Of a DNA stretch of 64,000 nucleotides, positions 3,001 to 24,504 are shown piece after piece; within the stretch, counting starts at the first letter, position 1, and each line of letters begins with the position of its first letter. Made by a program: the position numbers and the translations under genes. The notes below the pieces were generated by a model that ran no database searches, was not told the DNA's origin, and saw only the letters and a program-made list of their open reading frames with translations. Source of the DNA: Auanema rhodensis (lineage: Eukaryota > Animalia > Nematoda); assembly GCA_964057225.1 (NCBI GenBank), contig OZ059899.1:16988001-17052000 (forward strand), read 5' to 3'.

Positions 3001-6000
3001 ACAATGTTATTCAACGAAAAAATTAATTCTTCAGGGTGACAATCGAGGATATAAGTGTGAACTTATATCAGTTGATATCTCGGTGAATTTTTAAGCTAGC
3101 GCAAATCTGATAACACAGATCGACGCAGCTTAAAAATCCACATCGAATGCACTATACAACATTGAGAAACGCTTAATACAAAAATTAGTTATGATCGTTT
3201 GAAAAAAGACGCATTAGTGTATGTTGATTTTCCATGTACACTCAACATTGCTTCCAAAAACATTTTGACAAAAATTTTTTCGAAAAATTTCAAAATAATT
3301 TCGCAAAAAGTAAATGTTTTTAGATTCCTTTTTTTAAGGCAAAGACGATGGACAATGTTATTCAACGAAAAAATTAATTCTGCAGGGTGAAAATCGAGGA
3401 TATAAGTGTGAACTTATATCAGTTGATATCTCGGTGCATTTTTAAGCTAGCGCAAATCTGATAACACAGATCGACGCAGCTTAAAAATCCGCATCGAATG
3501 CACTATACTACATTGAGAAACGCCCAATACAAAAATTAGTTATGATCGTTTGAAAAATGATGCATTAGTGTATGTTGAGTTTCCATGTACACTCAACATT
3601 GCTTCCAAAAACATTTTGACAAAAATTTTTTCGAAAAATTTCAAAATAATTTCGCAAAAAGTAAATGTTTTTAGATTCCTTTTTTTAAGGCAAAGACGAT
3701 GGACAATGTTATTCAACGAAAAAATTAATTCTGCAGGGTGAAAATCGAGGATATAAGTGTGAACTTATATCAGTTGATATCTCGGTGCATTTTTAAGCTA
3801 GCGCAAATCTGATAACACAGATCGACGCAGCTTAAAAATCCACATCGAATGCACTATACAACATTGAGAAACGTTTAATACAAAAATTAGTTATGATCGT
3901 TTGAAAAATGATGCATTAGTGTATGTTGAGTTTCCATGTACACTCAACATTGCTTCCAAAAACATTTTGACAAAAATTTTTTCGAAAAATTTCAAAATAA
4001 TTTCGCAAAAAGTAAATGTTTTTAGATTCCTTTTTTTAAGGCAAAGACGATGGACAATGTTATTCAACGAAAAAATTAATTCTGCAGGGTGAAAATCGAG
4101 GATATAAGTGTGAACTTATATCAGTTGATATCTCGGTGCATTTTTAAGCTAGCGCAAATCTGATAACACAGATCGACGCAGCTTAAAAATCCGCATCGAA
4201 TGCACTATACAACATTGAGAAACGCTTAATACAAAAATTAGTTATGATCGTTTGAAAAAAGACGCATTAGTGTATGTTGAGTTTCCATGTACACTCAACA
4301 TTGCTTCCAAAAACATTTTGACAAAAATTTTTTCGAAAAATTTCAAAATAATTTCGCAAAAAGTAAATGTTTTTAGATTCCTTTTTTTAAGGCAAAGACG
4401 ATGGACAATGTTATTCAACGAAAAAATTAATTCTGCAGGGTGAAAATCGAGGATATAAGTGTGAACATATATCAGTTGATATCTCGGTGAATTTTTAAGC
4501 TAGCGCAAATCTGATAACACAGATCGACGCAGCTTAAAAATCCGCATCGAATGCACTATACAACATTGAGAAACGCTTAATACAAAAATTAGTTATGATC
4601 GTTTGAAAAAAGACGCATTAGTGTATGTTGAGTTTCCATGTACACTCAACATTGCTTCCAAAAACATTTTGACAAAAATTTTTTCGAAAAATTTCAAAAT
4701 AATTTCGCAAAAAGTAAATGTTTTTAGATTCCTTTTTTTAAGGCAAAGACGATGGACAATGTTATTCAACGAAAAAATTAATTCTTCAGGGTGAAAATCG
4801 AGGAAGTTCACACTTATATCAGTTGATATCTCGGTGAATTTTTAAGCTAGCGCAAATCTGATAACACAGATCGACGCAGCTTAAAAATCCGCATCGAATG
4901 CACTATATTACATTGAGAAACGCTCAATACAAAAATTAGTTATGATTGTTTGAAAAATGATGCATTAGTGTATGTTGAGTTTCCATGTACACTCAACATT
5001 GCTTCCAAAAACATTTTGACAAAAATTTTCCCGAAAAATTTCAAGATAATTTCACAAAAAGTAGATGTTTTTAGATTCATTTTTTCAAGGCAAAGATGAT
5101 GGACAATGTTATTCAACGAAAAAATTAATTCTTCAGGGTGAAAATCGAGGAAGTTCACACTTATATCAGTTGATATCTCGGTGAATTTTTAAGCTAGCGC
5201 AAATCTGATAACACAGATCGACGCAGCTTAAAAATCCGCATCGAATGCACTATACAACATTGAGAAACGCTTAATACAAAAGTTAGTTATGATCGTTTGG
5301 AAAATGATGCATTAGTGTATGTTGAGTTTCCATGTACACTCAACATTGCTTCCAAAAACATTTTGACAAAAATTTTTTCGAAAAATTTCAGAATATTTTA
5401 GCAAAAAATAGTTGTTTTTAGATTCCTTTTTTCAAGGCAAAGACGATGGACAATGTTATTCAACGAAAAAATTAATTCTTCAGGGTGACAATCGAGGATA
5501 TAAGTGTGAACTTATATCAGTTGATATCTCGGTGAATTTTTAAGCTAGCGCAAATCTGATAACACAGATCGACGCAGCTTAAAAATCCACATCGAATGCA
5601 CTATACAACATTGAGAAACGCTTAATACAAAAATTAGTTATGATCGTTTGAAAAAAGACGCATTAGTGTATGTTGATTTTCCATGTACACTCAACATTGC
5701 TTCCAAAAACATTTTGACAAAAATTTTTTCGAAAAATTTCAAAATAATTTCGCAAAAAGTAAATGTTTTTAGATTCCTTTTTTTAAGGCAAAGACGATGG
5801 ACAATGTTATTCAACGAAAAAATTAATTCTGCAGGGTGAAAATCGAGGATATAAGTGTGAACTTATATCAGTTGATATCTCGGTGCATTTTTAAGCTAGC
5901 GCAAATCTGATAACACAGATCGACGCAGCTTAAAAATCCGCATCGAATGCACTATACTACATTGAGAAACGCCCAATACAAAAATTAGTTATGATCGTTT

Positions 6001-8779
6001 GAAAAATGATGCATTAGTGTATGTTGAGTTTCCATGTACACTCAACATTGCTTCCAAAAACATTTTGACAAAAATTTTTTCGAAAAATTTCAAAATAATT
6101 TCGCAAAAAGTAAATGTTTTTAGATTCCTTTTTTTAAGGCAAAGACGATGGACAATGTTATTCAACGAAAAAATTAATTCTGCAGGGTGAAAATCGAGGA
6201 TATAAGTGTGAACTTATATCAGTTGATATCTCGGTGCATTTTTAAGCTAGCGCAAATCTGATAACACAGATCGACGCAGCTTAAAAATCCACATCGAATG
6301 CACTATACAACATTGAGAAACGTTTAATACAAAAATTAGTTATGATCGTTTGAAAAATGATGCATTAGTGTATGTTGAGTTTCCATGTACACTCAACATT
6401 GCTTCCAAAAACATTTTGACAAAAATTTTTTCGAAAAATTTCAAAATAATTTCGCAAAAAGTAAATGTTTTTAGATTCCTTTTTTTAAGGCAAAGACGAT
6501 GGACAATGTTATTCAACGAAAAAATTAATTCTGCAGGGTGAAAATCGAGGATATAAGTGTGAACTTATATCAGTTGATATCTCGGTGCATTTTTAAGCTA
6601 GCGCAAATCTGATAACACAGATCGACGCAGCTTAAAAATCCGCATCGAATGCACTATACTACATTGAGAAACGCCCAATACAAAAATTAGTTATGATCGT
6701 TTGAAAAATGATGCATTAGTGTATGTTGAGTTTCCATGTACACTCAACATTGCTTCCAAAAACATTTTGACAAAAATTTTTTCGAAAAATTTCAAAATAA
6801 TTTCGCAAAAAGTAAATGTTTTTAGATTCCTTTTTTTAAGGCAAAGACGATGGACAATGTTATTCAACGAAAAAATTAATTCTGCAGGGTGAAAATCGAG
6901 GATATAAGTGTGAACTTATATCAGTTGATATCTCGGTGCATTTTTAAGCTAGCGCAAATCTGATAACACAGATCGACGCAGCTTAAAAATCCACATCGAA
7001 TGCACTATACAACATTGAGAAACGCTTAATACAAAAATTAGTTATGATCGTTTGAAAAATGATGCATTAGTGTATGTTGAGTTTCCATGTACACTCAACA
7101 TTGCTTCCAAAAACATTTTGACAAAAATTTTTTCGAAAAATTTCAAAATAATTTCGCAAAAAGTAAATGTTTTTAGATTCCTTTTTTTAAGGCAAAGACG
7201 ATGGACAATGTTATTCAACGAAAAAATTAATTCTGCAGGGTGAAAATCGAGGATATAAGTGTGAACTTATATCAGTTGATATCTCGGTGCATTTTTAAGC
7301 TAGCGCAAATCTGATAACACAGATCGACGCAGCTTAAAAATCCGCATCGAATGCACTATACTACATTGAGAAACGCCCAATACAAAAATTAGTTATGATC
7401 GTTTGAAAAATGATGCATTAGTGTATGTTGAGTTTCCATGTACACTCAACATTGCTTCCAAAAACATTTTGACAAAAATTTTTTCGAAAAATTTCAAAAT
7501 AATTTCGCAAAAAGTAAATGTTTTTAGATTCCTTTTTTTAAGGCAAAGACGATGGACAATGTTATTCAACGAAAAAATTAATTCTGCAGGGTGAAAATCG
7601 AGGATATAAGTGTGAACTTATATCAGTTGATATCTCGGTGCATTTTTAAGCTAGCGCAAATCTGATAACACAGATCGACGCAGCTTAAAAATCCGCATCG
7701 AATGCACTATACTACATTGAGAAACGCTTAATACAAAAATTAGTTATGATCGTTTGAAAAATGATGCATTAGTGTATGTTGAGTTTCCATGTACACTCAA
7801 CATTGCTTCCAAAAACATTTTGACAAAAATTTTTTCGAAAAATTTCAGAATATTTTAGCAAAAAATAGTTGTTTTTAGATTCCTTTTTTCAAGGCAAAGA
7901 CGATGGACAATGTTATTCAACGAAAAAATTAATTCTGCAGGGTGAAAATCGAGGATATAAGTGTGAACTTATATCAGTTGATATCTCGGTGAATTTTTAA
8001 GCTAGCGCAAATCTGATAAAACAGATCGACGCAGCTTAAAAATCCGCATTGAATGCACTATACAACATTGAGAAACGCTTAATACAAAAATTAGTTATGA
8101 TCGTTTGAAAAAAGACGCATTAGTGTATGTTGAGTTTCCATGTACACTCAACATTGCTTCCAAAAACATTTTGACAAAAATTTTTTCGAAAAATTTCAGA
8201 ATATTTTAGCAAAAAATAGTTGTTTTTAGATTCCTTTTTTCAAGGCAAAGACGATGGACAATGTTATTCAACGAAAAAATTAATTCTGCAGGGTGAAAAT
8301 CGAGGATATAAGTGTGAACATATATCAGTTGATATCTCGGTGAATTTTTAAGCTAGCGCAAATCTGATAACACAGATCGACGCAGCTTAAAAATCCGCAT
8401 CGAATGCACTATACAACAATGAGAAACGCTTAATACAAAAATTAGTTATGATCGTTTGAAAAAAGACGCATTAGTGTATGTTGAGTTTCCATGTACACTC
8501 AACATTGCTTCCAAAAACATTTTGACAAAAATTTTTTCGAAAAATTTCAAAAAAATTTCGCAAAAAGTAAATGTTTTTAGATTCCTTTTTTTAAGGCAAA
8601 GACGATGGACAATGTTATTCAACGAAAAAATTAATTCTGCAGGGTGAAAATCGAGGATATAAGTGTGAACTTATATCAGTTGATATCTCGGTGCATTTTT
8701 AAGCTAGCGCAAATCTGATAACACAGATCGACGCAGCTTAAAAATCCGCATCGAATGCACTATACAACATTGAGAAACG

Positions 8780-11700
8780 CTCAATACAAAATTTATTTAT
8801 GATTGTTTGAAAAAAGATGCATTAGTGTATGTTGAGTTTCCATGTACGCTCAACATTGCTTCCAAAAACAGTTTGAGAAAACTTTTTCCGAAAAATTTCA
8901 GAATCATTTCACAAAAAGTAGATGTTTTTAGATTCCTTTTTTTAAGGCGAAGACGATGGACAATGTTATTCAACGAAAAAATTAATTCTCCAGGGTGAAA
9001 ATCGAGGATATAAGTGTGAACTTATATCAGTTGATATCTCGGTGCATTTTTAAGCTAGCGCAAATCTGATAACACAGATCGACGCAGCTTACAAATCCGC
9101 ATCGAATACACTATACTACATTGAGAAACGCTCGATACAAAAATTAGTTATGATCGTTTGAAAAATGATGCATTAGTGTATGTTGAGTTTCCATGTACGC
9201 TCAACATTGCTTCCAAAAAAAATTTGAGAAAAATTTTTCCGAAAAATTTCAGAATCATTTCACAAAAAGTAGATGTTTTTAGATTCCTTTTTTCAAGGCA
9301 AAAACGATGGACAATGTTATTCAACGAAAAAATTAATTCTTCAGGGTGAAAATCGAGGATATAAGTGTGAACTTATATCAGTTGATATCTCGGTGCATTT
9401 TTAAGCTAGCGCAAATCTGATAACACAGATCGACGCAGCTTACAAATCCGCATCGAATGCACTATACTACGTTGAGAAACGCTCAATACAAAATTTATTT
9501 ATGATCGTTTGAAAAATGATGCATTAGTGTATGTTGAGTTTCCATGTACGCTCAACATTGCTTCCAAAAACAGTTTGAGAAAAATTTTTCCGAAAAATTT
9601 CAGAATCATTTCACAAAAAGTAGATGTTTTTAGATTCCTTTTTTCAAGGCAAAAACGATGGACAATGTTATTCAACGAAAAAATTAATTCTTCAGGGTGA
9701 AAATCGAGGATATAAGTGTGAACTTATATCAGTTGATATCTCGGTGCATTTTCAAGCTAGCGCAAATCTGATAACACAGATCGACGCAGCTTACAAATCC
9801 GCATCGAATGCACTATACTACATTGAGAAACGCTCAATACAAAATTTATTTATGATTGTTTGAAAAAAGATGCATTAGTGTATGTTGAGTTTCCATGTAC
9901 GCTCAACATTGCTTCCAAAAACATTTTGAGAAAAATTTTTCCGAAAAATTTCAGAATCATTTCACAAAAAGTAGATGTTTTTAGATTCCTTTTTTTAAGG
10001 CGAAGACGATGGACATTGTTATTCAACGAAAAAATTAATTCTTCAGGGTGAAAATCGAGGATATAAGTGTGAACTTATATCAGTTGATATCTCGGTGCAT
10101 TTTTAAGCTAGCGCAAATCTGATAACACAGATCGACGCAGCTTACAAATCCGCATCGAATGCACTATACTACATTGAGAAACGCTCGATACAAAAATTAG
10201 TTATGATCGTTTGAAAAATGATGCATTAGTGTATGTTGAGTTTCCATGTACGCTCAACATTGCTTCCAAAAACATTTTGAGAAAAATTTTTCCGAAAAAT
10301 TTCAAGATAATTTTACTAGTAGATGTTTTTAGATTCCTTTTTTCAAGGCAAAAACGATGGACAATGTTATTCAACGAAAAAATTAATTCTTCAGGGTGAA
10401 AATCGAGGATATAAGTGTGAACTTATATCAGTTGATATCTCGGTGCATTTTCAAGCTAGCGCAAATCTGATCACACAGATCGACGCAGCTTAAAAATCCG
10501 CATCGAATGCACTATACTACATTGAGAAACGCTCAATACAAAATTTATTTATGATTGTTTGAAAAAAGATGCATTAGTGTATGTTGAGTTTCCATGTACG
10601 CTCAACATTGCTTCCAAAAACATTTTGAGAAAAATTTTTCCGAAAAATTTCAGAATCATTTCACAAAAAGTAGATGTTTTAAGATTCCTTTTTTTAAGGC
10701 GAAGACGATGGACAATGTTATTCAACGAAAAAATTAATTCTTCAGGGTGAAAATCGAGGAAGTTCACACTTATATCAGTTGATATCTCGGTGCATTTTTA
10801 AGCTAGCGCAAATCTGATAACACAGATCGACGCAGCTTACAAATCCGCATCGAATGCACTATACTACATTGAGAAACGCTCAATACAAAATTTATTTATG
10901 ATTGTTTGAAAAATGATGCATTAGTGTATGTTGAGTTTCCATGTACACTCAACATTGCTTCCAAAAACATTTTGACAAAAATTTTTCCGAAAAATTTCGA
11001 AATAATTTCGCAAAAAGTAGATGTTTTTAGATTCCTTTTTTCAAGGCAAAGACGATGGACAATGTTATTCAACGAAAAAATTAATTCTTCAGGGTGAAAA
11101 TCGAGGATATAAGTGTGAACTTATATCAGTTGATATCTCGGTGCATTTTTAAGCTAGCGCAAACCTGATAACACAGATCGACACAACTTAAAAATCCGCA
11201 TCGAATGCGCTATACTACATTGAGAAACGCTTAATACAAAAATTAGCTATGATCGTTTGAAAAATGATGCATTAGTGTATGTTGAGTTTCCATGTACGCT
11301 CAACATTGCTTCCAAAAACATTTTGAGAAAAATTTTTCCGAAAAATATCAGAATCATTTCACAAAAAGTAGATGTTTTTAGATTCCTTTTTTTAAGGCGA
11401 AGACGATGGACAATGTTATTCAACGAAAAAATTAATTCTTCAGGGTGAAAATCGAGGAAGTTCACACTTATATCAGTTGATATCTCGGTGCATTTTTAAG
11501 CTAGCGCAAATCTGATAACACAGATCGACGCAGCTTACAAATCCGCATCGAATGCACTATACTACATTGAGAAACGCTCGATACAAAATTTATTTATGAT
11601 TGTTTGAAAAAAGATGCATTAGTGTATGTTGAGTTTCCATGTACGCTCAACATTGCTTCCAAAAACATTTTGAGAAAACTTTTTCCGAAAAATTTCAGAA

Positions 11701-14700
11701 TCATTTCACAAAAAGTAGATGTTTTTAGATTCCTTTTTTTAAGGCGAAGACGATGGACAATGTTATTCAACGAAAAAATTAATTCTCCAGGGTGAAAATC
11801 GAGGATATAAGTGTGAACTTATATCAGTTGATATCTCGGTGCATTTTTAAGCTAGCGCAAATCTGATAACACAGATCGACGCAGCTTACAAATCCGCATC
11901 GAATGCACTATACTACGTTGAGAAACGCTCAATACAAAATTTATTTATGATTGTTTGAAAAAAGATGCATTAGTGTATGTTGAGTTTCCATGTACGCTCA
12001 ACATTGCTTCCAAAAACATTTTGAGAAAACTTTTTCCGAAAAATTTCAGAATCATTTCACAAAAAGTAGATGTTTTTAGATTCCTTTTTTTAAGGCGAAG
12101 ACGATGGACAATGTTATTCAACGAAAAAATTAATTCTCCAGGGTGAAAATCGAGGATATAAGTGTGAACTTATATCAGTTGATATCTCGGTGCATTTTTA
12201 AGCTAGCGCAAATCTGATAACACAGATCGACGCAGCTTACGAATCCGCATCGAATGCACTATACTACATTGAGAAACGCTCAATACAAAATTTATTTATG
12301 ATTGTTTGAAAAAAGATGCATTAGTGTATGTTGAGTTTCCATGTACGCTCAACATTGCTTCCAAAAACATTTTGAGAAAACTTTTTCCGAAAAATTTCAG
12401 AATCATTTCACAAAAAGTAGATGTTTTTAGATTCCTTTTTTCAAGGCAAAAACGATGGACAATGTTATTCAACGAAAAAATTAATTCTTCAGGGTGAAAA
12501 TCGAGGATATAAGTGTGAACTTATATCAGTTGATATCTCGGTGCATTTTCAAGCTAGCGCAAATCTGATAACACAGATCGACGCAGCTTAAAAATCCGCA
12601 TCGAATGCACTATACTACATTGAGAAACGCTCAATACAAAAATTATTTATGATCGTTTGAAAAAAGATGCATTAGTGTATGTTGAGTTTCCATGTACGCT
12701 CAACATTGCTTCCAAAAACATTTTGATAAAAATTTTTCCGAAAAATTTCAAGATAATTTTACAAAAAGTAGATGTTTTTAGATTCCTTTTTTTAAGGCGA
12801 AGACGATGGACAATGTTATTCAACGAAAAAATTAATTCTTCAGGGTGAAAATCGAGGATATAAGTGTGAACTTATATCAGTTGATATCTCGGTGCATTTT
12901 TAAGCTAGCGCAAACCTGATAACACAGATCGACACAACTTAAAAATCCGCATCGAATGCGCTATACTACATTGAGAAACGCTTAATACAAAAATTAGCTA
13001 TGATCGTTTGAAAAATGATGCATTAGTGTATGTTGAGTTTCCATGTACGCTCAACATTGCTTCCAAAAACATTTTGAGAAAAATTTTTCCGAAAAATATC
13101 AGAATCATTTCACAAAAAGTAGATGTTTTTAGATTCCTTTTTTTAAGGCGAAGACGATGGACAATGTTATTCAACGAAAAAATTAATTCTTCAGGGTGAA
13201 AATCGAGGAAGTTCACACTTATATCAGTTGATATCTCGGTGCATTTTTAAGCTAGCGCAAATCTGATAACACAGATCGACGCAGCTTACAAATCCGCATC
13301 GAATGCACTATACTACATTGAGAAACGCTCGATACAAAATTTATTTATGATTGTTTGAAAAAAGATGCATTAGTGTATGTTGAGTTTCCATGTACGCTCA
13401 ACATTGCTTCCAAAAACATTTTGAGAAAAATTTTTCCGAAAAATTTCAGAATCATTTCACAAAAAGTAGATGTTTTTAGATTCCTTTTTTTAAGGCGAAG
13501 ACGATGGACAATGTTATTCAACGAAAAAATTAATTCTCCAGGGTGAAAATCGAGGATATAAGTGTGAACTTATATCAGTTGATATCTCGGTGCATTTTTA
13601 AGCTAGCGCAAATCTGATAACACAGATCGACGCAGCTTACAAATCCGCATCGAATGCACTATACTACGTTGAGAAACGCTCAATACAAAATTTATTTATG
13701 ATTGTTTGAAAAAAGATGCATTAGTGTATGTTGAGTTTCCATGTACGCTCAACATTGCTTCCAAAAACATTTTGAGAAAACTTTTTCCGAAAAATTTCAG
13801 AATCATTTCACAAAAAGTAGATGTTTTTAGATTCCTTTTTTTAAGGCGAAGACGATGGACAATGTTATTCAACGAAAAAATTAATTCTCCAGGGTGAAAA
13901 TCGAGGATATAAGTGTGAACTTATATCAGTTGATATCTCGGTGCATTTTTAAGCTAGCGCAAATCTGATAACACAGATCGACGCAGCTTACGAATCCGCA
14001 TCGAATGCACTATACTACATTGAGAAACGCTCAATACAAAATTTATTTATGATTGTTTGAAAAAAGATGCATTAGTGTATGTTGAGTTTCCATGTACGCT
14101 CAACATTGCTTCCAAAAACATTTTGAGAAAACTTTTTCCGAAAAATTTCAGAATCATTTCACAAAAAGTAGATGTTTTTAGATTCCTTTTTTCAAGGCAA
14201 AAACGATGGACAATGTTATTCAACGAAAAAATTAATTCTTCAGGGTGAAAATCGAGGATATAAGTGTGAACTTATATCAGTTGATATCTCGGTGCATTTT
14301 CAAGCTAGCGCAAATCTGATAACACAGATCGACGCAGCTTAAAAATCCGCATCGAATGCACTATACTACATTGAGAAACGCTCAATACAAAAATTATTTA
14401 TGATCGTTTGAAAAAAGATGCATTAGTGTATGTTGAGTTTCCATGTACGCTCAACATTGCTTCCAAAAACATTTTGATAAAAATTTTTCCGAAAAATTTC
14501 AAGATAATTTTACAAAAAGTAGATGTTTTTAGATTCCTTTTTTTAAGGCGAAGACGATGGACAATGTTATTCAACGAAAAAATTAATTCTTCAGGGTGAA
14601 AATCGAGGATATAAGTGTGAACTTATATCAGTTGATATCTCGGTGCATTTTTAAGCTAGCGCAAATCTGATAACACAGATCGACGCAGCTTACAAATCCG

Positions 14701-14780
14701 CATCGAATGCACTATACTACATTGAGAAACGCTCAATACAAAATTTATTTATGATTGTTTGAAAAAAGATGCATTAGTGT
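8780..14780. repeat. Diverged sub-family block of the same satellite (~17 monomers), containing a duplicated 5-mer (1751 bp)
   Basis: Diagnostic variants are concentrated here: TGTACGCTC, TTGAGAAAA, AGAATCATTTCAC, AGGCGAAGAC, GCTTACAAATCC, ATTTATTTATG. Units at 11257 and 13008 share private variants, and 1751 = 4x351+347. Confidence 0.93.
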
Positions 14781-15122
14781 ATGTTGAGTTTCCATGTACA
14801 CTCAACATTGCTTCCAAAAACATTTTGACAAAAATTTTTTCGAAAAATTTCAGAATATTTTAGCAAAAAATAGTTGTTTTTAGATTCCTTTTTTCAAGGC
14901 AAAGACGATGGACAATGTTATTCAACGAAAAAATTAATTCTGCAGGGTGAAAATCGAGGATATAAGTGTGAACTTATATCAGTTGATATCTCGGTGCATT
15001 TTTAAGCTAGCGCAAATCTGATAACACAGATCGACGCAGCTTAAAAATCCGCATCGAATGCACTATACTACATTGAGAAACGCTTAATACAAAAATTAGT
15101 TATGATCGTTTGAAAAATGATG

Positions 15123-15126: not shown

Positions 15127-15525
15127 TGTAATATCCTTATGTTGGATATTAATATTCCATGATTGACCCTTAGATTGATGTGTTGTAAAAGAAACAATAA
15201 GATTTGAGGAAGAGAGAAAGATTTATTATAAATAAAAAACATTTAAACAATAAACAAATAAAGATAAAGATAAGTCCGCCAACTGAAGATTCAGTTGAAT
15301 GGCAAGCTTATATAGCGAATGTTATCAGCATTTTCCACGAAAGGTTATAAGTTGTCAATGACAATTATAACTATCTCAGAAAATGCTGAGGCTGCAAAAT
15401 ATAACTGATAACATAATACACTAAGACAAGAAACTAGAATTATAAAATATAAAATATAAAACACAGAATAAAGAAATACATAAAAATTATAGAAAGAATA
15501 AAGTAAAGAATTATAAAGTATAACA
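15127..15525 (-). repeat. 3' LTR (399 bp)
   Basis: Direct repeat of 24106-24504 with no mismatch found by eye. Minus strand reads TGTTATA...ATTACA. Confidence 0.97.
15222..15227 (-). terminator. Candidate polyadenylation signal AATAAA in the 3' LTR
   Basis: The + strand TTTATT gives AATAAA on minus, about 60 nt downstream of the predicted initiator. The AT-rich context lowers specificity. Confidence 0.5.
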
Positions 15526-15582: not shown

Positions 15583-16641
15583 TCATAATGTTGCAGCAAG
15601 CTTTTTGATGAGATCCTTATGTACTTTTCTCATCTTTCCTTGACTCATTTCCAATTCCACATATGAGTTGTATACGCCTGTAATTTTGAACGGTTCATTA
15701 TAAGTGGGTCGCAATTTGCCGTGAACCGTCATATCCTTCAATAGTACCATTTCACCTATTTCAAATATACGTGATGCTATTCGGTTACTATTATTCAGCC
15801 GATTTTGTTGTTCAATTGATTTTAATTGAATTTTTTCTTGAATAGAATCCCAGGTATTTTTCCGGTTTTCATTTCTTTCCAATAATTCGTCATCTTCAGG
15901 AGAATTTAGATGAGGTTGTCCTGGTAATTGACGGTCCATAGGTAGTCGTGCGTCTCTTCCAAATAGAGCAATGTATGGGCTGATTCCGGTAGTTGTACTT
16001 GGGATTGTATTTAATGCGAATGTGATTTTAGGTAATTGTGAGGCCCATTGAGAGACACGGTTTTCAGCACAAGTGGATAAACATTCCTGGATGGTTCAAT
16101 GTAGTCGTTCCACTTGACCGTTTGTATTTTTGTGATATGGCAGAGAGAAGGTTTGTACAATTCCAAATTCGTTGCACATTAACTTGAATTCTTTAGATAT
16201 AAAATTTCCTCCATTGTCAGACACGATGCTCACTGGTGGTCCAAAAATGAAGACGAAATTCGTCAGGAACTTTCGGACTGTTTCTTCGGCATTCTGTGTG
16301 CGTAAAGGTATGCTCGTTATCCATTTCGAAAAAGCATCTTGAATAGAAAGAATATATTTAAATCCATTAGTGCTAGGGGAAAAAGGTCCTGTCACATCCA
16401 TATGAATCCTATCAAATGGTTTTTGTGGGGTAACAAACTTTCCATATGGTTCTCTCGTTGTATCATGTTGATTTATTTTCCTTTTTGCGCATGTCAGGCA
16501 TTGGCTGACGATCTCTTTCGCATCTTCCATCATATTTGTCCAATGGAATCTTCTTGATAATGCTGCATGTGTTCTTTTGATTCCTTGATGCGCTCCAATT
16601 CTTGCGTCTTCATGAAAAAGTTTCGCAAGTACTTGATTCAT
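15583..16641 (-). pseudogene. Integrase (HHCC zinc finger, DD(35)E core, GPY/F-like C-terminus), out of frame with pol and interrupted by an in-frame TGA at 16096-16098
   Basis: FHEDARIGAHQG...CLTC; HMDVTGPF; SDNGGNF followed by 35 residues then NGQVE. Past the stop the frame continues (TIQECL...WASQLPKITFALNT...TTGISPYIALFGR) into track ORF 15583-15939, which contains KLRPTYNEPFKI. Confidence 0.93.
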
Positions 16642-19600
16642 GTCTTTTGTTTTGGAATCATAATCCTTGGAGTAAGATATTGTTTGTTAGGTCGAGCATG
16701 CAAAACTCCGTCGATAACAATATATCTATCGCTATTAATCTGTTTAGGTTGTTCCGTTAACATATCAGCAATAGTTTCCTTAATCCATGGTGTTCCTTGT
16801 TGTAACTGAATTAGTTTGTCGGTATCCAGAGTTTCCACATTGGTTACATTTATGAGATAGTTGATGGTTTCTTGGATATCCGTTAAACTTGTTGTTGGCG
16901 TTGTCTTCTGTAGCTTCGGTTTAGGACCATCGTTAGCTTCGTTGCCTATGTATCTGGATAGTGCATCACATACACTATTCATACGTCCTGGACAGTACAT
17001 AATCACAATATCATATTCCTGGATCATTAACTGATATTTCGCTAGTCTTCCAATAAGATCTCTTCTACTCATTAGACTGGTTAGTGGTCGATGATCCGTT
17101 ATTAGCTTAGTTGACGTGCCTAAAACATATGTGCGAAATTGTTGTAATGCGTAGACGAGTGCCAAAGCTTCTAATTCGATAGGTGGGTATTCTCTTTCTG
17201 TAGGTGAGAGCTTCCTACTTGCGAACGCAACAGGGTGTAATCTATTTCCTGTATCTTGTAGTAAGACTGCTCCAATTGCAATAGTACTAGCGTCACTTTC
17301 AATAACAAAAGGTGCTCCATTTGTTGGTGGCTTCAGAACTGGTGCTGTGCATAGAGCTTTCTTGAGAGTCTCGAATGCTTTTTCACGTTCTTCCGTCCAT
17401 TCGAAATCTTGATCCTTGTGTGTGAGTTGATACAACGGTTCGGCTATTTTGGCGTAGTCTCTGATGAATCGCCGAAAATAATTTGTCATTCCAAGGAATG
17501 AACGAATAGCGGTGACCGTTTTAGGAGTTGAAAATTTCTTAACGGCTGTAATTTTTGATGGATCAGGTTGTATTCCATCGCGACCAATTATAAATCCAAG
17601 AAATTTAACTTGTGTAGCTGCAAATTTGCATTTACTTAGTTTTGCTTTCATTCCTAATCCTTGTAAAGCTTGTAACACTTCTTCTATATCCTCCAGATGT
17701 TGTTCAGCTGTGTTTGATATAATGAGTAGATCATCCAGATAAACAAAAAGTCGACATTTTACTTGATTTTGCAAATAGCGAACAGCTGATTGAAATGTAT
17801 GTGGAGCTCCACAGAGACCCATCGGCATTCTGCAATATTGATAAACTCCTGATGAGGTCACAAATGCAGTGAGGTGACGGTCTTCTTCACGTAAAGGAAT
17901 TTGAAAAAATCCCGATACGAGATCGATGTTTGTGAAGTATCGAGCTCCTGCAGTGCTGTCGATTATTTCTGGTATATGAGGAATAGAATAAGTCTGTTTC
18001 TGTGTGACACTATTGAGTGCACGGAAGTCCGTTACAAAGCGGAATGAGTTGTCTTTCTTCTTGACTAAGACGACTGGACTTGTAAAACTTGATGTTGATG
18101 TTTCTATTACTCCTTGGTCCAGCATTTCTTTTACTTGACGTTCAACTTCATCCTGTTTACCCAAAGGAACTCGATATGATCGAGATTTGGGCAGGTCCAT
18201 ATCGGTTCTCAAAGTGATTGAATGTTCTATTGGTCCTTTGAATAATCCAATGTTCCGATCTTCGTTAAAAAAAGCATTTTTGAATCTTCTCAACATAGTT
18301 TTGAGATTTTGACGTTGATTTTTAGATAGATCCGTTGATTCGAATTTTAAGTTATCGAAAGGATTCTTCTCAAAAATAGGCAATTTATCTGACCAATCAG
18401 CTTCTGGTGGAATATAGTCCGGTATATGTGGGATTCCAATTTCTTCTGGTATTTTTCCTTTTCCAATAATGGTGTTTCCTGTTAACTTCACCTCATAATT
18501 TGCTGTATTGATGGCGAATATTGTGAGTGGTGAAGTCTTGATAGCAGTAGGTGTGAATTGAATAGGTCCATTTCCACATCGTATAAGAGCGTATTGTTTT
18601 GGTTGTAGTTCTTTTGCCAATTGTAGACGAATCATAGCTTTAGTTCGGGGTGGAATAATAGATTCTCTAATGTTTATAATTGAAACGGTGTCTGAACTGA
18701 TGCGAAAGCTCTTCTGGTTAGCGGATAATAATGGTAGAAAATGGTTTCCAACTATTAATTGCTTGCGTAGAGCTTGTAGAGAAGTTGTTATTCCTTTTTC
18801 TTCTAATGCTTTCATGATGTCCAAACCAAGTAACATTTCAGTAGGACAATGTTTATCCTCAGAGATTAAAAATGTGTGTGAAAGATGGTATCCAGCAATA
18901 ACAATGTCCAACGTTATTGTACCCAGAAAGTTGAATATTGATCCATTTGCTGCGGTGGCAGAGATTTTAGTTGAGTTGAAATTCTCTTTTCCTAAATAGC
19001 GTACTGATGATTCCTTCAAATATGAAACAGATGCTCCGCTATCCCATAAAGCTACGAGTCCTCTGCCTTCTGCTTCAATTCTTATATATGGGAGTTCTCT
19101 TTTGTTCGTTGCACAGCATCCAACAAAAGGTATAATAATAGGAATAAAAGTGATGACAGTAGGAAAATATCTTCGAATAGTTTCGTCGTCGGCTGGAACA
19201 TCGATGTCAGCGTTGAGTAGTTCGTGTTGTTCAACTGCATTCACATTTAAGATAGGAACTTTCTCTTTGATATAAGATACAACAATAATGTATAATGCTG
19301 ATCCAAAGATTAATATAACTATCATAACACCTGCAGAGATAAACATTCTGTTGAGGGATCCAGCAAAGAAATCAACTCCTCGTTCCCATAGTGATGATGC
19401 AATATTTTGAGTAGAACTAAAAAGTTCGTTACTTTTTGTAAACCATTCTGATAAGCCTGGCAAATTCGCTTGATTCGTGATAACTCGTAGAAAATTTCTA
19501 TGAGGATTGGTAGCGAAAATGTGTCCATATGTTAAGCTTATTGTTCTAACTAAGTTTTCATCGGTGATATTTTCATAAAGATTTCTTTGTGAAAATCGAA

Positions 19601-22600
19601 TGGCTGCTAGATCGGGATACTGATCTGAACCAATGTTTAAAGCAGTTACGTTTGTAACTCCGTTGAGGGATTTCCATTCTCCATCCTCTTTCCATATATC
19701 ATTTTCTACTGTTTCACATGGAATTTCAGTTCCATATGCTTCCAAATCTGCTGAATCTTGAGGTGCAAAGTAGAGGCGGTCATCATCCGTGATGACGGGT
19801 GTTTCTAAATAACACTTATCTTTGTATGTGTGGTTGCGATAAATGTGAATTGGTTCTATTGGCTGACAGGTTGAAACCCGAATAAGATTCCGTCCAATTA
19901 TTCGAGCCACTACATCATCTCGTTGCATAATAGATCGGATAGCAATCGTAGGATTGATATTAAATATAGCTTGCCATGTCTTAATAAGTTCAAGTTGAGC
20001 ATGACATATGCTGTGATGTTGATGATGAAATTCTTCGACCAGTATGGTTCTCATTCGTTCAAATCCATAGTTGAGTTTGTTGATGGTAGTTAATGCATCT
20101 CGATGTCGAAGTATAGTATTCTGGTGATCAGTTAAGTGAGTGCCGAATAATTCTTGAGCTTTCTCTATGCTTCCAATCATGGGTTGCATTGATGTCATCC
20201 CTTGAATAGTACTAATTGTTTGTTTTGTAGTAGATGATGTATTTACAACAGGTTTTGAGGTAGCACTAAGAAATCGTGCAGTTGGCGTAGTTTTAGTGGT
20301 GATAGAGCGACTGAATACTCTTTTTGTAATCTCTTCAGGTGCTGGTTTTGAAAACCATGACATTAAATCAGTTAATTGTTTAGCGTCAATATTGATGTTA
20401 CGGCTGTAGAGATCTTCTTTATTCGAAGGCATCGGTATTCCAAAATTGGTTTCTCGGTTTCTGAGTGTCCAGTTATCCAACAGCTTTAATTTCATTTCAT
20501 ATACTTGATCTTTCACTTGTCGTTGCATAAAATGACTATGAAAGAACAGTTTCATTCGATAATATTCTATCAGTTGAGGTTGAGAATACTGATAGCGTAG
20601 TTCACGAAGTAATTCTTTTGCTTTATATACCACAGAACGTGGATCTCCAAATGTGAAGTTGAGATGGTTTTGATATACTGTGAATATCAAAAATTCGAGT
20701 GGTGGCACATATTCTGTTTCGGATAAGATTGCAGGTATTTGTATCAATTCCCATAATTTATCTCTTGCAACCGAAATTGTAGAATTGCCTGGTTTAACTA
20801 TTCTTTTTATATAATTGATAGGAAGTCGGTGTGCTAGTTGACCGATGACAAAACTAGGCTCCATTTGTTCGATCCACATTTTTGTAATCATCTTGCTTTC
20901 TTCTCCTCCTAGAGCATGTAGTAAGAGAATATTCGGATCGCGGAAGTCTTTTAAATTTGCCCAGTAATCTATAGTATGATCAGTAATGTTCAAAATATGG
21001 ACAGCTGACAGCAAAAATTGATGATATCGAGCAATAACAGTCAGGTTCTGATATTCGTTGCTAACTGATTGATAGTGATACCAGTTATGAATATATCGTA
21101 TGGTATTTCCGCCAGACGTGACAGTATATCTAGCAAACGGTAGATCCAATATTTGAATAGGAGTTAACTTATATTCCATTTCTGAGCGAAATGACGCAAT
21201 TAAGGATGAATTTGTTGAACGTTTATAGCGTTGGCGTGAAGGATCCATTTGATTATCCAAATAACTTGTTAGATCCAGTAGAGAATATGCATGCGGATAA
21301 TCAATAAACGAGACAAGAGTCTCAGTAGTGGATTCAAAAATTGGTGAAGAAAAACAAGATTGAGTTGTAGTAGATGCTGAGGTGTTGGCTAAGACAAGTG
21401 CTGTTTCTAGACTTGATATTAGCAGTGTTTGATCTCCAAGTATTCCATACAGAGGTCCAATACGTGTGTATTGGCATGGTGCTCGGGGTGTGGGTGGTTT
21501 CCAAACTACTGAACCATCTCCAAATGTACAGCTTCCCATTTGAGCTTTACAGCCTTCGGCGTTGACAATTAAGTCAGATACAATAGTATTGTCCTTTAAA
21601 TTTGTAATAACTCCTCGCTCCATCACAAATTGAGTTAAGTTGGCGCATTGAGTAAAACTGAAGAAACGTTCCGGTTCATATACTGGCTTAGGAGCTTCAT
21701 ATGTAAGTGGATTAGCGCTCAACAGTTTTTCATTTTTCCATTTCTTGTCTCGAGCAGCTATACGGCATTCTTCTACAGATACATATCCATTACCAATGAT
21801 GGTGTCATTGCTTTCTCGGAACCAAAATTGATCCGTTACACATAATCGATAGATGCGTGTATAACATTTCCACGCTTCCCATGTTACGACGGTTTGTTTA
21901 GGAATGAACAATTCAACGTTAACTTGATGAGCTTGTTGAATTGCTTTCCGTTGGCATCCTGTTATCTCTGGTGGTGTCATCAGAATTCCTCCTTTATGAG
22001 CTAAACATAGTTGATATGAAGCATTCACAGTGGGAAGCAGAAATGTGCAGATTATTGTTGTGAGCAGGAATGGTAATGCAATAGTATTTATATTGAATCG
22101 AGGTTTCCATCGTCGTTGATTGCCTTGATTCTCTCTTGGATAATTGTCGCGATTATTCCTGGCAAAGTTGTCTCGATTTTCTCTTTGATAATTGTTGCGA
22201 GGTTCTCTCGAATGGTGATTACTCTCCATTGAGTAGTTGTTTCCATAATTTTGTCGAGGGCCAGAGTTCCTGCTGAATTTATTTTTGAAATTCTTCCAAG
22301 GGTTTCTTGAATTGTTGCCATTGTTCCGTTCGAAATCTCGTGGCTGCTGATGGTTCCTTTGGTTCCTATTTTCCTTCATGGTGATCTTTTGAACTGCAGA
22401 GATCAACTCTTGCATAGTTGAGTTTTCTTCATGCTGTTTTTTATAGTTAGCACGAATTGCTTCTTCAAAACGTGCTGTCCTTTTTGCTTCCTCATAAGTC
22501 TTCGGATCTTTTCCTTGAACAATTATGCCTAAATCAGCGTTCAATCCATTTAAGAAAGCTGATCTTAATATGAGCTCTCTTTCTCGATCAGTTGGGCTCA

Positions 22601-23108
22601 TAATACTGGAAGCCATTTCTTCCAAGTATGAGGCAAACTGAGTAACAGTTTTCTCTCCTTGCGTCGAGCGTAGCAACTTCGCGATCGTGAAATTCCTTTC
22701 CGTGGCAGGGCAAAGTAACTCTGCCAATTGTGAAACAAGGTCTTTCCAAGGTCCTCGTTCACGAATTTCGGAAGGAATCGAGTTATATGCAGAGATCGCA
22801 GAATCATTCTGCTGAAGCAGCAGAGGAAGAAGAAAAATTCTTTCAATTACAGAAAGTCCCGCAGCATTCGCGAATCGGTTAAATATATCGATGTACGATC
22901 GAAAGCTTCGGCTACCATCGTATTTGGGGCAGTGTGGACTGCCTAGAACTTTTGTTAAGTTTTTGGTCAACTCTGGAGATGCCATTAAATTAGGCGTTTC
23001 CAGAGTTGAATCTCTGTTTGATTGCTCATGTGGTCTCATGTTGAGTAGGAGCTTCAGAGGTAGTTTTTCGCGCTGGGGAGTTTTTTCTTTTTTCGGTGTT
23101 ACAGCCAA
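16638..23108 (-). CDS. Gag-Env(gB-like)-PR-RT-RNase H polyprotein, 2156 aa as tracked. True start uncertain: first ATG at 23039, frame open back to 23285
   Basis: Single stop-free frame containing capsid-like Gag, a signal peptide, a Cys-rich glycoprotein, a TM helix, LWDSGAS, YLDD and RNase H motifs. Confidence 0.95.
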   Translation of the reverse strand: MAVTPKKEKTPQREKLPLKLLLNMRPHEQSNRDSTLETPNLMASPELTKNLTKVLGSPHCPKYDGSRSFRSYIDIFNRFANAAGLSVIERIFLLPLLLQQNDSAISAYNSIPSEIRERGPWKDLVSQLAELLCPATERNFTIAKLLRSTQGEKTVTQFASYLEEMASSIMSPTDRERELILRSAFLNGLNADLGIIVQGKDPKTYEEAKRTARFEEAIRANYKKQHEENSTMQELISAVQKITMKENRNQRNHQQPRDFERNNGNNSRNPWKNFKNKFSRNSGPRQNYGNNYSMESNHHSREPRNNYQRENRDNFARNNRDNYPRENQGNQRRWKPRFNINTIALPFLLTTIICTFLLPTVNASYQLCLAHKGGILMTPPEITGCQRKAIQQAHQVNVELFIPKQTVVTWEAWKCYTRIYRLCVTDQFWFRESNDTIIGNGYVSVEECRIAARDKKWKNEKLLSANPLTYEAPKPVYEPERFFSFTQCANLTQFVMERGVITNLKDNTIVSDLIVNAEGCKAQMGSCTFGDGSVVWKPPTPRAPCQYTRIGPLYGILGDQTLLISSLETALVLANTSASTTTQSCFSSPIFESTTETLVSFIDYPHAYSLLDLTSYLDNQMDPSRQRYKRSTNSSLIASFRSEMEYKLTPIQILDLPFARYTVTSGGNTIRYIHNWYHYQSVSNEYQNLTVIARYHQFLLSAVHILNITDHTIDYWANLKDFRDPNILLLHALGGEESKMITKMWIEQMEPSFVIGQLAHRLPINYIKRIVKPGNSTISVARDKLWELIQIPAILSETEYVPPLEFLIFTVYQNHLNFTFGDPRSVVYKAKELLRELRYQYSQPQLIEYYRMKLFFHSHFMQRQVKDQVYEMKLKLLDNWTLRNRETNFGIPMPSNKEDLYSRNINIDAKQLTDLMSWFSKPAPEEITKRVFSRSITTKTTPTARFLSATSKPVVNTSSTTKQTISTIQGMTSMQPMIGSIEKAQELFGTHLTDHQNTILRHRDALTTINKLNYGFERMRTILVEEFHHQHHSICHAQLELIKTWQAIFNINPTIAIRSIMQRDDVVARIIGRNLIRVSTCQPIEPIHIYRNHTYKDKCYLETPVITDDDRLYFAPQDSADLEAYGTEIPCETVENDIWKEDGEWKSLNGVTNVTALNIGSDQYPDLAAIRFSQRNLYENITDENLVRTISLTYGHIFATNPHRNFLRVITNQANLPGLSEWFTKSNELFSSTQNIASSLWERGVDFFAGSLNRMFISAGVMIVILIFGSALYIIVVSYIKEKVPILNVNAVEQHELLNADIDVPADDETIRRYFPTVITFIPIIIPFVGCCATNKRELPYIRIEAEGRGLVALWDSGASVSYLKESSVRYLGKENFNSTKISATAANGSIFNFLGTITLDIVIAGYHLSHTFLISEDKHCPTEMLLGLDIMKALEEKGITTSLQALRKQLIVGNHFLPLLSANQKSFRISSDTVSIINIRESIIPPRTKAMIRLQLAKELQPKQYALIRCGNGPIQFTPTAIKTSPLTIFAINTANYEVKLTGNTIIGKGKIPEEIGIPHIPDYIPPEADWSDKLPIFEKNPFDNLKFESTDLSKNQRQNLKTMLRRFKNAFFNEDRNIGLFKGPIEHSITLRTDMDLPKSRSYRVPLGKQDEVERQVKEMLDQGVIETSTSSFTSPVVLVKKKDNSFRFVTDFRALNSVTQKQTYSIPHIPEIIDSTAGARYFTNIDLVSGFFQIPLREEDRHLTAFVTSSGVYQYCRMPMGLCGAPHTFQSAVRYLQNQVKCRLFVYLDDLLIISNTAEQHLEDIEEVLQALQGLGMKAKLSKCKFAATQVKFLGFIIGRDGIQPDPSKITAVKKFSTPKTVTAIRSFLGMTNYFRRFIRDYAKIAEPLYQLTHKDQDFEWTEEREKAFETLKKALCTAPVLKPPTNGAPFVIESDASTIAIGAVLLQDTGNRLHPVAFASRKLSPTEREYPPIELEALALVYALQQFRTYVLGTSTKLITDHRPLTSLMSRRDLIGRLAKYQLMIQEYDIVIMYCPGRMNSVCDALSRYIGNEANDGPKPKLQKTTPTTSLTDIQETINYLINVTNVETLDTDKLIQLQQGTPWIKETIADMLTEQPKQINSDRYIVIDGVLHARPNKQYLTPRIMIPKQKT
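16950..17320 (-). other. RNase H domain (Ty3/Gypsy type); boundaries approximate
   Basis: FVIESDAS...GAVLLQ...VAFASRKL...ELEALA...TDHRPL...DALSR. Confidence 0.93.
17321..18290 (-). other. Reverse transcriptase domain plus connection; boundaries approximate
   Basis: SPVVLVKKKD..FRFVTDFRALN, IDLVSGFFQI, MPMGLCGAPHTFQ, YLDD (17730-17741), KFLGFII, IRSFLGMTNYFRRFI. Confidence 0.97.
18720..19100 (-). other. Retroviral-type aspartic protease domain; boundaries approximate
   Basis: ALWDSGASVSY (DSG at 19035-19043), AANG flap, MLLGLDIM. Confidence 0.93.
19269..22082 (-). other. Envelope-like type I membrane glycoprotein, herpesvirus-gB/chuvirus-G-like class III fusogen (aa ~343-1280 of the polyprotein)
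   Basis: Signal peptide 22020-22082; Cys-rich ectodomain with at least 12 N-x-S/T sequons; furin site RYKR at 21219-21230; gB-like core CHAQ..W..INPT..R..VVAR..G..VSTCQP at 19860-20006; CYLETPV; TM helix at 19269-19346. Confidence 0.85.
22083..23039 (-). other. Gag: capsid-like domain followed by an N/Q/R-rich tail, no CCHC knuckle
   Basis: PKYDG..SF..YI..F, LLRSTQGEKTVTQFA..LE.MA, and AFLNGL..PKTYEEA resemble the Gypsy/Arc-type capsid pattern; the position is first in the ORF. Confidence 0.85.
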
Positions 23109-24092
23109 GTGTGTTGGCGTTTTTTCGTCGTCCGATGGACTTAAATCGTTGTCAAACGAGTCGTCACTATCGGGAAAAGGAAATCGAGAAATACGATTTC
23201 TCTTGTCTCTTAATCTTTGAGAGGTACGGAAAGGCGTATCCGTATAATTATTCTTGGAGGTTGCCGTTTTGGAAAAGGAGGAAAGTCAGAACAATCTACA
23301 ATGTAAAATAGTGGAATAAGTTAGTAAACAAGATAAGAATATGAATAGTTAATAGTGAATAAATTAGTGAATAACGTGAAAAAAAAAATCAAAGAAAAAA
23401 AAAGATATATAATAATATGGGTTGAAGATTAATTAATTAATGAACTCATACAAAAACAAACTATAGAGAGGAAAAAAAAAAGTGAATATAATTAATTGTT
23501 AAGATGATGATAGGATATGATTATGTGACAATGTGATTCATAAATTAGAGAAGTGAGTATGGCGGACAAATCAAAATCTCAATTGTTACTGAATAACAAT
23601 GAATTACCAAACAAGGCATCTTTCAAATTCCAAAGTCTTTGTTTCAACTTGAATCAACAATCAAAAAATTATGAGAGGAAGGTTTAAATTCAAATATGAC
23701 AAATGATACAGCGGATGTTATTTTCTTACAGTGGCCATTCTGTTAGTACAAACTTGTAATCTTTATCAAAAATATCGCAAATTGACTTTATTAAGGTCCA
23801 ATTTTGCTTATATCAAACAGCTTTTCCATTTCCAAAAAATATATATTTTTCGCCACAATGAAAAATCAAAAGTACAACTGCGCAGAAACAAAAAGAAATC
23901 GAAAAGTTGGCCAATTCAGTATCTCACCCTTGCGCAAAATATCAACCCTGTTTATTAAAAAAATGAGTGAGACCCTTCGTACTGAATTGGAAAGAGAGGT
24001 GGTAGCCCAGGGAAATAGCTCAAAAAAATTCTCTTTAACTGAATGATAATTCATAATTTAATCGAGTTCAAAAAATCGTAAAAAGATTCTAA

Positions 24093-24105
24093 GGTGGAAC
24101 CTCCA
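24093..24105 (-). other. Primer-binding site TGGAGGTTCCACC, tRNA-Gln type
   Basis: Directly follows the 5' LTR. The + strand GGTGGAACCTCCA equals the 3' end of metazoan tRNA-Gln as I recall it (...CTCGGTGGAACCT+CCA). Confidence 0.85.
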
Positions 24106-24504
24106 TGTAATATCCTTATGTTGGATATTAATATTCCATGATTGACCCTTAGATTGATGTGTTGTAAAAGAAACAATAAGATTTGAGGAAGAGAGAAAGA
24201 TTTATTATAAATAAAAAACATTTAAACAATAAACAAATAAAGATAAAGATAAGTCCGCCAACTGAAGATTCAGTTGAATGGCAAGCTTATATAGCGAATG
24301 TTATCAGCATTTTCCACGAAAGGTTATAAGTTGTCAATGACAATTATAACTATCTCAGAAAATGCTGAGGCTGCAAAATATAACTGATAACATAATACAC
24401 TAAGACAAGAAACTAGAATTATAAAATATAAAATATAAAACACAGAATAAAGAAATACATAAAAATTATAGAAAGAATAAAGTAAAGAATTATAAAGTAT
24501 AACA
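24106..24504 (-). repeat. 5' LTR (399 bp)
   Basis: Direct repeat of 15127-15525; followed on the minus strand by the PBS. Confidence 0.97.
24260..24293 (-). promoter_or_regulatory. LTR core promoter: TATATAA plus initiator-like TCAGTT
   Basis: Minus strand reads GCTATATAAGCTTGCCATTCAACTGAATCTTCAGTT. The first T of the TATA (24293) lies 30 nt upstream of the A of TCAGTT (24263). Confidence 0.65.

Follow-up and report, generated by a model that had tools for sequence, protein, structure and literature searches.

The 64,000-nucleotide stretch of the Auanema rhodensis genome considered here (contig OZ059899.1, positions 16,988,001 to 17,052,000; hereafter the window, in which coordinates are counted from the first letter) is occupied by a satellite array of 156 copies of a 351-bp unit, whose sole interruption is a 9.4-kb long terminal repeat (LTR) element of the Ty3/gypsy type on the minus strand. 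Between the LTRs, the element has the Ty3/gypsy Pol order of protease, reverse transcriptase (RT), RNase H and integrase, and the top PDB match of its family profile is Ty3 Gag-Pol. The env region lies between gag and pol, all in one frame, and a single open reading frame (ORF) holds, in order, Gag (amino acids, aa, 87-167), Env (aa 341-1257), protease (aa 1317-1411), RT and RNase H (Table 1). In the reading of the sequence that we consider probable, an internal signal would send a gB-like Env into the endoplasmic reticulum (ER) lumen, a single transmembrane (TM) helix would return protease, RT and integrase to the cytosol, and motifs of the form V/I-N-x-V/I would be cut by the element's own protease.

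Table 1. Features of the element and of the array around it, in window coordinates.
Feature	Position	Strand	Basis or remark
5' LTR, 399 bp, TG...CA	24106..24504	-	0 mismatches vs 3' LTR
Primer binding site (PBS), tRNA-Gln type	24094..24105	-	12/12 bases (reverse complement) equal to a listed Gln PBS
gag-env-pro-RT-RNase H ORF, 2133 aa from first ATG	16638..23039	-	ORF and Pfam search
Gag capsid region (Retrotrans_gag, aa 87-167)	22539..22781	-	E 5e-4, under Pfam cut-off; 25% identity to N-terminal part of relative P0002
INTI (aa 317-320), likely cytosolic protease site freeing Gag from signal	22080..22091	-	motif in relatives; cleavage inferred
Internal signal sequence IALPF...TVNA (aa 320-340), predicted signal peptidase site TVNA/SY	22020..22082	-	hydropathy and (-3,-1) rule
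Env ectodomain (aa 341-1232), gB-like class III fusogen, 14 Cys, 13 sequons	19344..22019	-	Pfam, model, alignment
Furin-type site RYKR (aa 604-607)	21219..21230	-	sequence pattern
Long variable Env region (aa 608-905)	20325..21218	-	low-confidence helical model
Env TM helix (aa 1233-1257), predicted stop-transfer, then KEK	19269..19343	-	hydropathy, relatives
ILNVNAV (aa 1263-1269), likely protease site freeing Pol from Env tail	19233..19253	-	motif in relatives; cleavage inferred
Proline-rich hydrophobic stretch FPTV...GCC (aa 1292-1309), end likely marks protease N-terminal cut	19113..19166	-	alignment, model
Aspartic protease (aa 1317-1411), catalytic D1333 (LWDSGAS), Ddi1-like retropepsin fold	18807..19091	-	Pfam and structure model
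RT (YLDD) and RNase H (aa 1659-2009)	17013..18065	-	Pfam
LINVTNV (aa 2062-2068), junction motif between RNase H and integrase, with weak support	16836..16856	-	strict motif 2/12; wide motif 6/12 vs 1.9
Integrase, broken	15583..16686	-	out of main ORF frame from about 16640-16690 on; stop at 16096-16098
3' LTR, 399 bp	15127..15525	-	identical to 5' LTR
Satellite array	1-15122 and 24509-64000		resumes in register beyond element

One continuous frame and its relatives

It had been proposed from the sequence alone that gag and pol are joined without a frameshift, and neither a stop nor a frame change is indeed found from gag to RNase H. The broken state of the integrase that follows went unmentioned in that proposal. 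A programmed frameshift at the end of gag was considered and rejected, codons 1-478 being free of slippery heptamers; the six found further on are all away from the gag/env border. The peptides quoted in the original prediction are all present in the ORF, including the basic Gag tail NQRRWKPRF (aa 307-315), RFNINTI (aa 314-320) and KEK (aa 1258-1260). The region to which that prediction was assigned, 22100 to 19113, coincides exactly at its ends with RFNINTI and with the Cys-Cys pair of the stretch before the protease, and LINVTNV (nt 16856-16836) lies outside it. The three hydrophobic stretches to which it drew attention (TM helix, signal and Cys-Cys stretch) are the top three 19-residue Kyte-Doolittle (KD) peaks of the whole protein (2.75, 2.14 and 2.08).

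A protein search with aa 300-1340 returned 1 match among 7989 candidates, and one with aa 1230-1900 returned 538, from the best 120 of which we picked 23 relatives that bore a nematode name, carried an Env, or had no name but ranked high; all are predicted proteins, compared at the protein level. By Pfam, a glycoprotein family lies upstream of the protease or RT in 20 of the 23, and the remaining three (P0013, P0033 and P0041) start in the late part of Env or immediately ahead of the TM helix. That the hydrophobic and Asn-rich stretches are there by chance, or that the element is an assembly chimera, is barely conceivable: a satellite array is hard to assemble and the integrase is broken, but the 6.4-kb open frame, the identical LTRs and the target-site duplication (4 bp, AATG, flanking the element on both sides) speak against it, and the sharing of the architecture by those 20 relatives refutes it.

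In a quick tree of RT-RNase H with 48 rows, which holds neither P0046, lacking an RT, nor the sequences from the papers on published elements, the query and 22 relatives (23 env-before-protease rows) fall on one branch with a Shimodaira-Hasegawa-like approximate likelihood ratio (SH-aLRT) support of 100. The query sits inside a 10-row rhabditid subclade (SH-aLRT 98) of Caenorhabditis, Diploscapter, Auanema and Heterorhabditis elements, to which its RT-RNase H identity is 61-66%; by this placement, a nematode host is likely. P0051, an unnamed protein of 2603 aa, falls outside the nematode RT branch and yet shares the order of signal, Env, TM helix and protease, which speaks for the reading given above. 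At the DNA level, none of 89 loci obtained from scans of viral contigs and metagenomes had a match to the Env profile. Two database proteins, P0014 and P0021, look like chimeric gene models, one of them fusing a GTPase of the EF-Tu type to the element and the other adding a phlebovirus-like glycoprotein from an element of the BEL/Pao type.

Signal, transmembrane helix and envelope fold

The start of Env is intact in the query and in 13 relatives, and in each of these a hydrophobic core stands directly ahead of the first invariant Env Cys. A (-3,-1) site (small residue at -1, small or aliphatic at -3) is found within ten residues in all 14 proteins, against a background of 540 in 965 random Env windows (0.56 per window), and the signal region of the query has only one, TVNA/SY. 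The putative signal peptidase site of the V-x-A type that had been proposed after the basic Gag tail is present, in a conserved signal sequence. The c-regions are polar (TVNA, TDA, TES, AEA) and a Pro lies near the site in 9 of the 14, so that with its short hydrophobic h-region, polar c-region, Pro and (-3,-1) site the signal looks, from its sequence, like an efficient substrate of signal peptidase.

The same features bear on a variant of this topology, in which the first hydrophobic stretch would be an uncut or slowly cut signal anchor, Gag-Env-Pol would remain one two-pass hairpin until the viral protease acts, and Gag and Pol would stay covalently joined through the Env loop during assembly. 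Such an arrangement would solve the packaging of Pol; the stretch reaches a KD of 2.14 over 19 residues, delayed cleavage is known where C meets prM in flaviviruses (PMC7601889), and in some elements gB-type ectodomains are flanked by two TM segments (Chary and Hayashi, 2026; PMC13524379). The short h-region, polar c-region, Pro and (-3,-1) site are against it, as is the insertion score of the 19 residues, +1.0 compared with -2.5 for the TM helix, and we regard the uncut or slowly cut anchor as unlikely.

Between Env and the protease or RT, one strong TM segment (KD peak of at least 2.0) is present in all 23 relatives, and in 20 of them the net charge is greater after it than before it (sum +56 vs +3). 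The helix that had been placed before KEK is real as a feature of the sequence, with its numbering, given as aa 1255-1280, corrected to aa 1233-1257.

The ectodomain between the two stretches matches the viral fusion glycoprotein family PF24664 (Pfam, E 8e-12), and across 13 sequences 11 of its 14 Cys do not vary. For aa 341-1232, an AlphaFold model built on 20 sequences, with the last 45 or so alignment columns misaligned, has high confidence towards its two ends and low confidence between them. It matches gB of herpes simplex virus (HSV; 2gum, E 6e-10) as well as nyavirus and rhabdo-like glycoproteins (E 1e-15 to 1e-13), so that the model points to an Env of the HSV gB type (class III) with conserved cysteines. 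Sequons are more frequent than expected in the Env of the query (13 vs 7.3) and rarer than expected in its Pol (3 vs 4.8), their density is higher in Env than in Pol in 13 of 13 relatives, and R-x-K/R-R occurs in the Env of 11 of the 13. The placement of Gag in the cytosol, Env in the lumen and Pol again in the cytosol, put forward by the original prediction, is supported by conservation, by the charge and sequon biases, by the furin-type sites and by the modelled gB fold.

The distance between two conserved Cys, 451 aa in the query, ranges from 131 to 544 aa among the relatives and is greatest in P0046 and in the query. The variable region of the query Env has no Pfam match and no phmmer match in the 23 relatives, and its Atlas matches reach only 0.84-0.85, with low recognition; it is possibly an added receptor-binding or shielding domain.

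The third hydrophobic stretch had been noted as ending in Cys-Cys before the protease, which it does. A conserved TM or anchor role did not stand up, the CC itself occurring in 3 of 22 proteins. The stretch aligns with xPPllTYIPIIIPLICxV in close relatives, and in distant ones its counterparts are polar segments that end in VNAV, IYAI or IYQI; its insertion score in the query is +3.7, with three prolines, and it is at or below 0 in none of the 22 proteins, of which 9 have a KD of at least 1.6. In the model, the stretch lies outside the Ddi1-like protease fold, at a pLDDT (predicted local distance difference test) of about 50. A third TM segment or a palmitoyl anchor at aa 1292-1309 was rejected on its insertion score, its lack of conservation and its polar counterparts in distant members. 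It is very improbable that the stretch is a third membrane segment or a second signal that would hold the protease at the membrane or direct it into the lumen: it is the third-highest hydropathy peak of the query and looks signal-like after basic residues in a few relatives, but the same conservation figures oppose it, and RT and integrase in the lumen could not replicate the element. In 15 of 21 relatives (3.0 in shuffles) a wider form of the junction motif lies 15-40 residues ahead of the catalytic Asp, which is about where a retropepsin starts (compare Asp25 of the protease of human immunodeficiency virus, HIV). The stretch is likely, by its sequence, to be the approach to the protease's own N-terminal cut rather than an anchor.

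Junction motifs and the fate of the polyprotein

Similar Asn/aliphatic motifs had been pointed out at the domain borders, and they are more frequent than chance would give ahead of the signal and behind the TM helix, though not after RNase H. With the strict motif V/I-N-x-V/I, windows of 45 residues and 2000 shuffles, 7 of 13 relatives carry the motif before the signal (0.37 on average in shuffles) and 14 of 23 carry it after the TM helix (0.77 on average), and in both cases 0 of the 2000 shuffles reach the count; these windows hold the motif at a density of 16 per 1000 aa, compared with 0.66 in Env. Both enriched sites are on the predicted cytosolic side and hence within reach of the element's protease, for which they are likely to be cleavage sites. 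The motif may also resemble the sites cut by the Ty3 protease.

From the single frame, the domain order, the conserved hydrophobic stretches and the class III fold match, we infer the following course of cleavage and processing. Gag would be made in the cytosol and the internal signal would start translocation, with signal peptidase cutting after A340 during synthesis, so that Gag would be held by the signal and Pol would hang from the Env tail. Env would fold in the lumen, be glycosylated and be cut by furin at RYKR; the TM helix would stop transfer, aa 1292-1309 would stay on the cytosolic side and Pol would fold on that face of the membrane. The aspartic protease would then free Gag near INTI and Pol near VNAV, and would trim its own N-terminus near aa 1308-1310. 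With Env between Gag and Pol and threaded in this way, Pol would be tied to Env and not to Gag, and Gag, Env and Pol would by logical default be made 1:1:1.

Such a ratio would be unusual, since Gag-Pol of Ty1 and Ty3 amounts to about 5% of Gag (PMC4974528), and this favours a different account, in which most Gag and Pol would come from other RNAs (a splice past signal, Env and TM helix giving an ordinary cytosolic Gag-Pol, or early polyadenylation giving Gag alone) and the threaded polyprotein would mainly supply Env. Codon 273 contains a GT donor (22222) and codon 1283 a TTCCAG acceptor (19192); the two share one phase and would join Gag to the linker after the TM helix. The Gag tail also has an AATAAA, at 22283. 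The donor is weak, however, the strict TTTCAG is not found in the element, and a match in phase is easy by chance, because three of the four loose acceptors in that interval share the phase; the conserved protease motifs on either side of Env fit processing of the whole chain. We take this account to be decidedly unlikely.

More doubtful than the threaded topology itself, and less likely than not, is an extension of it, by which there would never be a Gag-Pol fusion. Signal peptidase would split Gag from Pol in the course of translation, Pol would be delivered as the cytoplasmic tail of Env, and formation of the Env trimer, holding the proteases 70-145 residues from the TM helices, would dimerise and activate the protease, which would release Gag and Pol at the V/I-N-x-V/I motifs.

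Several points weigh against the threaded reading. The topology is a prediction from hydropathy, and in the query itself the positive-inside signal is weak (KEK, net +1). Taken as a whole, the Env model is weak, with a mean pLDDT of 58.8, and its TM-scores are low (0.17-0.27). The ectodomains flanked by two TM segments mentioned above mean that the signal may stay uncut. Six of the 13 relatives lack the strict motif ahead of the signal, and after RNase H it is not enriched, being present in 2 of 12 relatives, a count reached by 347 of the 2000 shuffles; in 51 other Ty3/gypsy proteins it follows RNase H in 3. A conserved strict motif at that position was accordingly rejected as not above chance, and the wider motif is found there in 6 of 12 relatives against 1.9 expected (11 of 2000 shuffles reach the count). 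Finally, the pattern was set after the junctions of the relatives had been seen, and the shuffles ignore kinship, so that the enrichment is support and not proof. As far as the sequence goes, the threaded topology appears real and conserved, and the query, as it stands, would be a defective member of the published family.

The copy, the family and other polyproteins

With identical LTRs and a broken integrase, the element may be a defective copy that was inserted recently, or else the sequence may contain errors. As the sequence stands, an intact integrase cannot be made by this copy, the frame change and the stop (Table 1) being attributable to a defect or to an error of sequencing; an intact integrase is the mark of intact copies, not of family membership, in PMC13524379. 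The PBS corresponds to a 12-nt Gln sequence listed for two Caenorhabditis elements in supplementary file 1 of the same paper. Around the element, most of 30 listed satellite copies are 93-100% alike and some measure 347 bp. Upstream of its first ATG, the main frame stays open through another 82 codons (23040-23285), with a protein-like charged sequence of higher GC. The 1-kb leader has two GT(A)AG donors (23927 and 23729) and, near 23295, a run rich in pyrimidines that ends in TGTAG, which suggests a leader intron and a true ORF start that may differ. Between protease and RT, a beta-rich spacer (18440-18690, about aa 1452-1535) begins at an I-N-I motif, SIINIR (EMINAE in P0002), and has no Pfam match; we take it to resemble the degenerate dUTPase-like segment of some Ty3/gypsy elements.

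By its sequence, the element belongs to the published nematode group of Ty3/gypsy elements with GAG-ENV-POL order and a gB-type Env, and the gene order is not new. Sacco and colleagues, in 2022, are said to have first reported non-canonical endogenous retroviruses of nematodes, under the name NERV and with a continuous gag-env-pro-pol frame, and the topology may already have been described by them. Chary and Hayashi (2026; PMC13524379), who credit Sacco et al. 2022, describe elements of nematodes, bryozoans and flatworms that have the GAG-ENV-POL order and a gB-type Env, the ectodomain being flanked by a signal peptide and a TM segment or by two TM segments. Like the query, the nematode errantiviruses of this kind have a Pol of the Ty3/gypsy type, an env that separates gag from pol, a gB-type Env with a signal on one side and a TM helix on the other, and a tRNA-Gln PBS; there is no difference in kind, the query being a copy with a long Env variable region and a broken integrase. 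In the main text of that paper the words polyprotein, frameshift, fused and splic- are absent and a processing map is not discussed, and a literature search, whose coverage left out most subscription literature, found no paper on the processing map of GAG-ENV-POL elements.

Flaviviruses, to whose C-prM-E-NS polyprotein the original prediction had likened the element, have a class II fusogen and a serine protease. The comparison is fair at the Gag/signal junction only, where the sequence has the same layout of a capsid protein, an internal signal, a cytosolic protease site and a lumenal signal peptidase site, and it does not extend to mechanism, given the polar c-region, the class III fold and the aspartic protease of the query. 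In flaviviruses too, a basic capsid protein is followed by an internal signal with a cytosolic site for the viral protease and a lumenal one for signal peptidase, and the enzymes lie downstream of the envelope, but there is no homology, the membrane passes are far more numerous, and anchor C has a nonpolar and deliberately poor c-region that delays C-prM cleavage (PMC7601889), in contrast to the polar one of the query. Atlas virus and the nematode Belpaoviridae (PMC9094657) are likewise nematode LTR elements with a single polyprotein and a captured viral fusogen; unlike the query, Atlas virus is of the BEL/Pao type, with Gag-Pol-Env order and a C-terminal class II, phlebovirus-like Env, so that its Gag and Pol are contiguous and Pol never follows a TM segment. 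Foamy viruses (PMC3196705) package Pol without fusion to Gag, as would be the case here, but their Pol is a soluble precursor in its own right, with RNA as the bridge, whereas that of the query would begin as the cytoplasmic tail of Env.

With the gene order and the gB-type Env flanked by signal and TM helix already published, the copy by itself is ordinary. What is added here is a map of the junctions over about twenty relatives, which predicts the location of each cut, and it raises a question that the available parts of PMC13524379 leave unaddressed, namely by what route Pol reaches the capsid, and from where an excess of Gag is drawn, when Env stands in between. If Pol does ride on the Env tail, this would be a third route of enzyme packaging among retroelements, beside Gag-Pol fusion and the route of foamy viruses.

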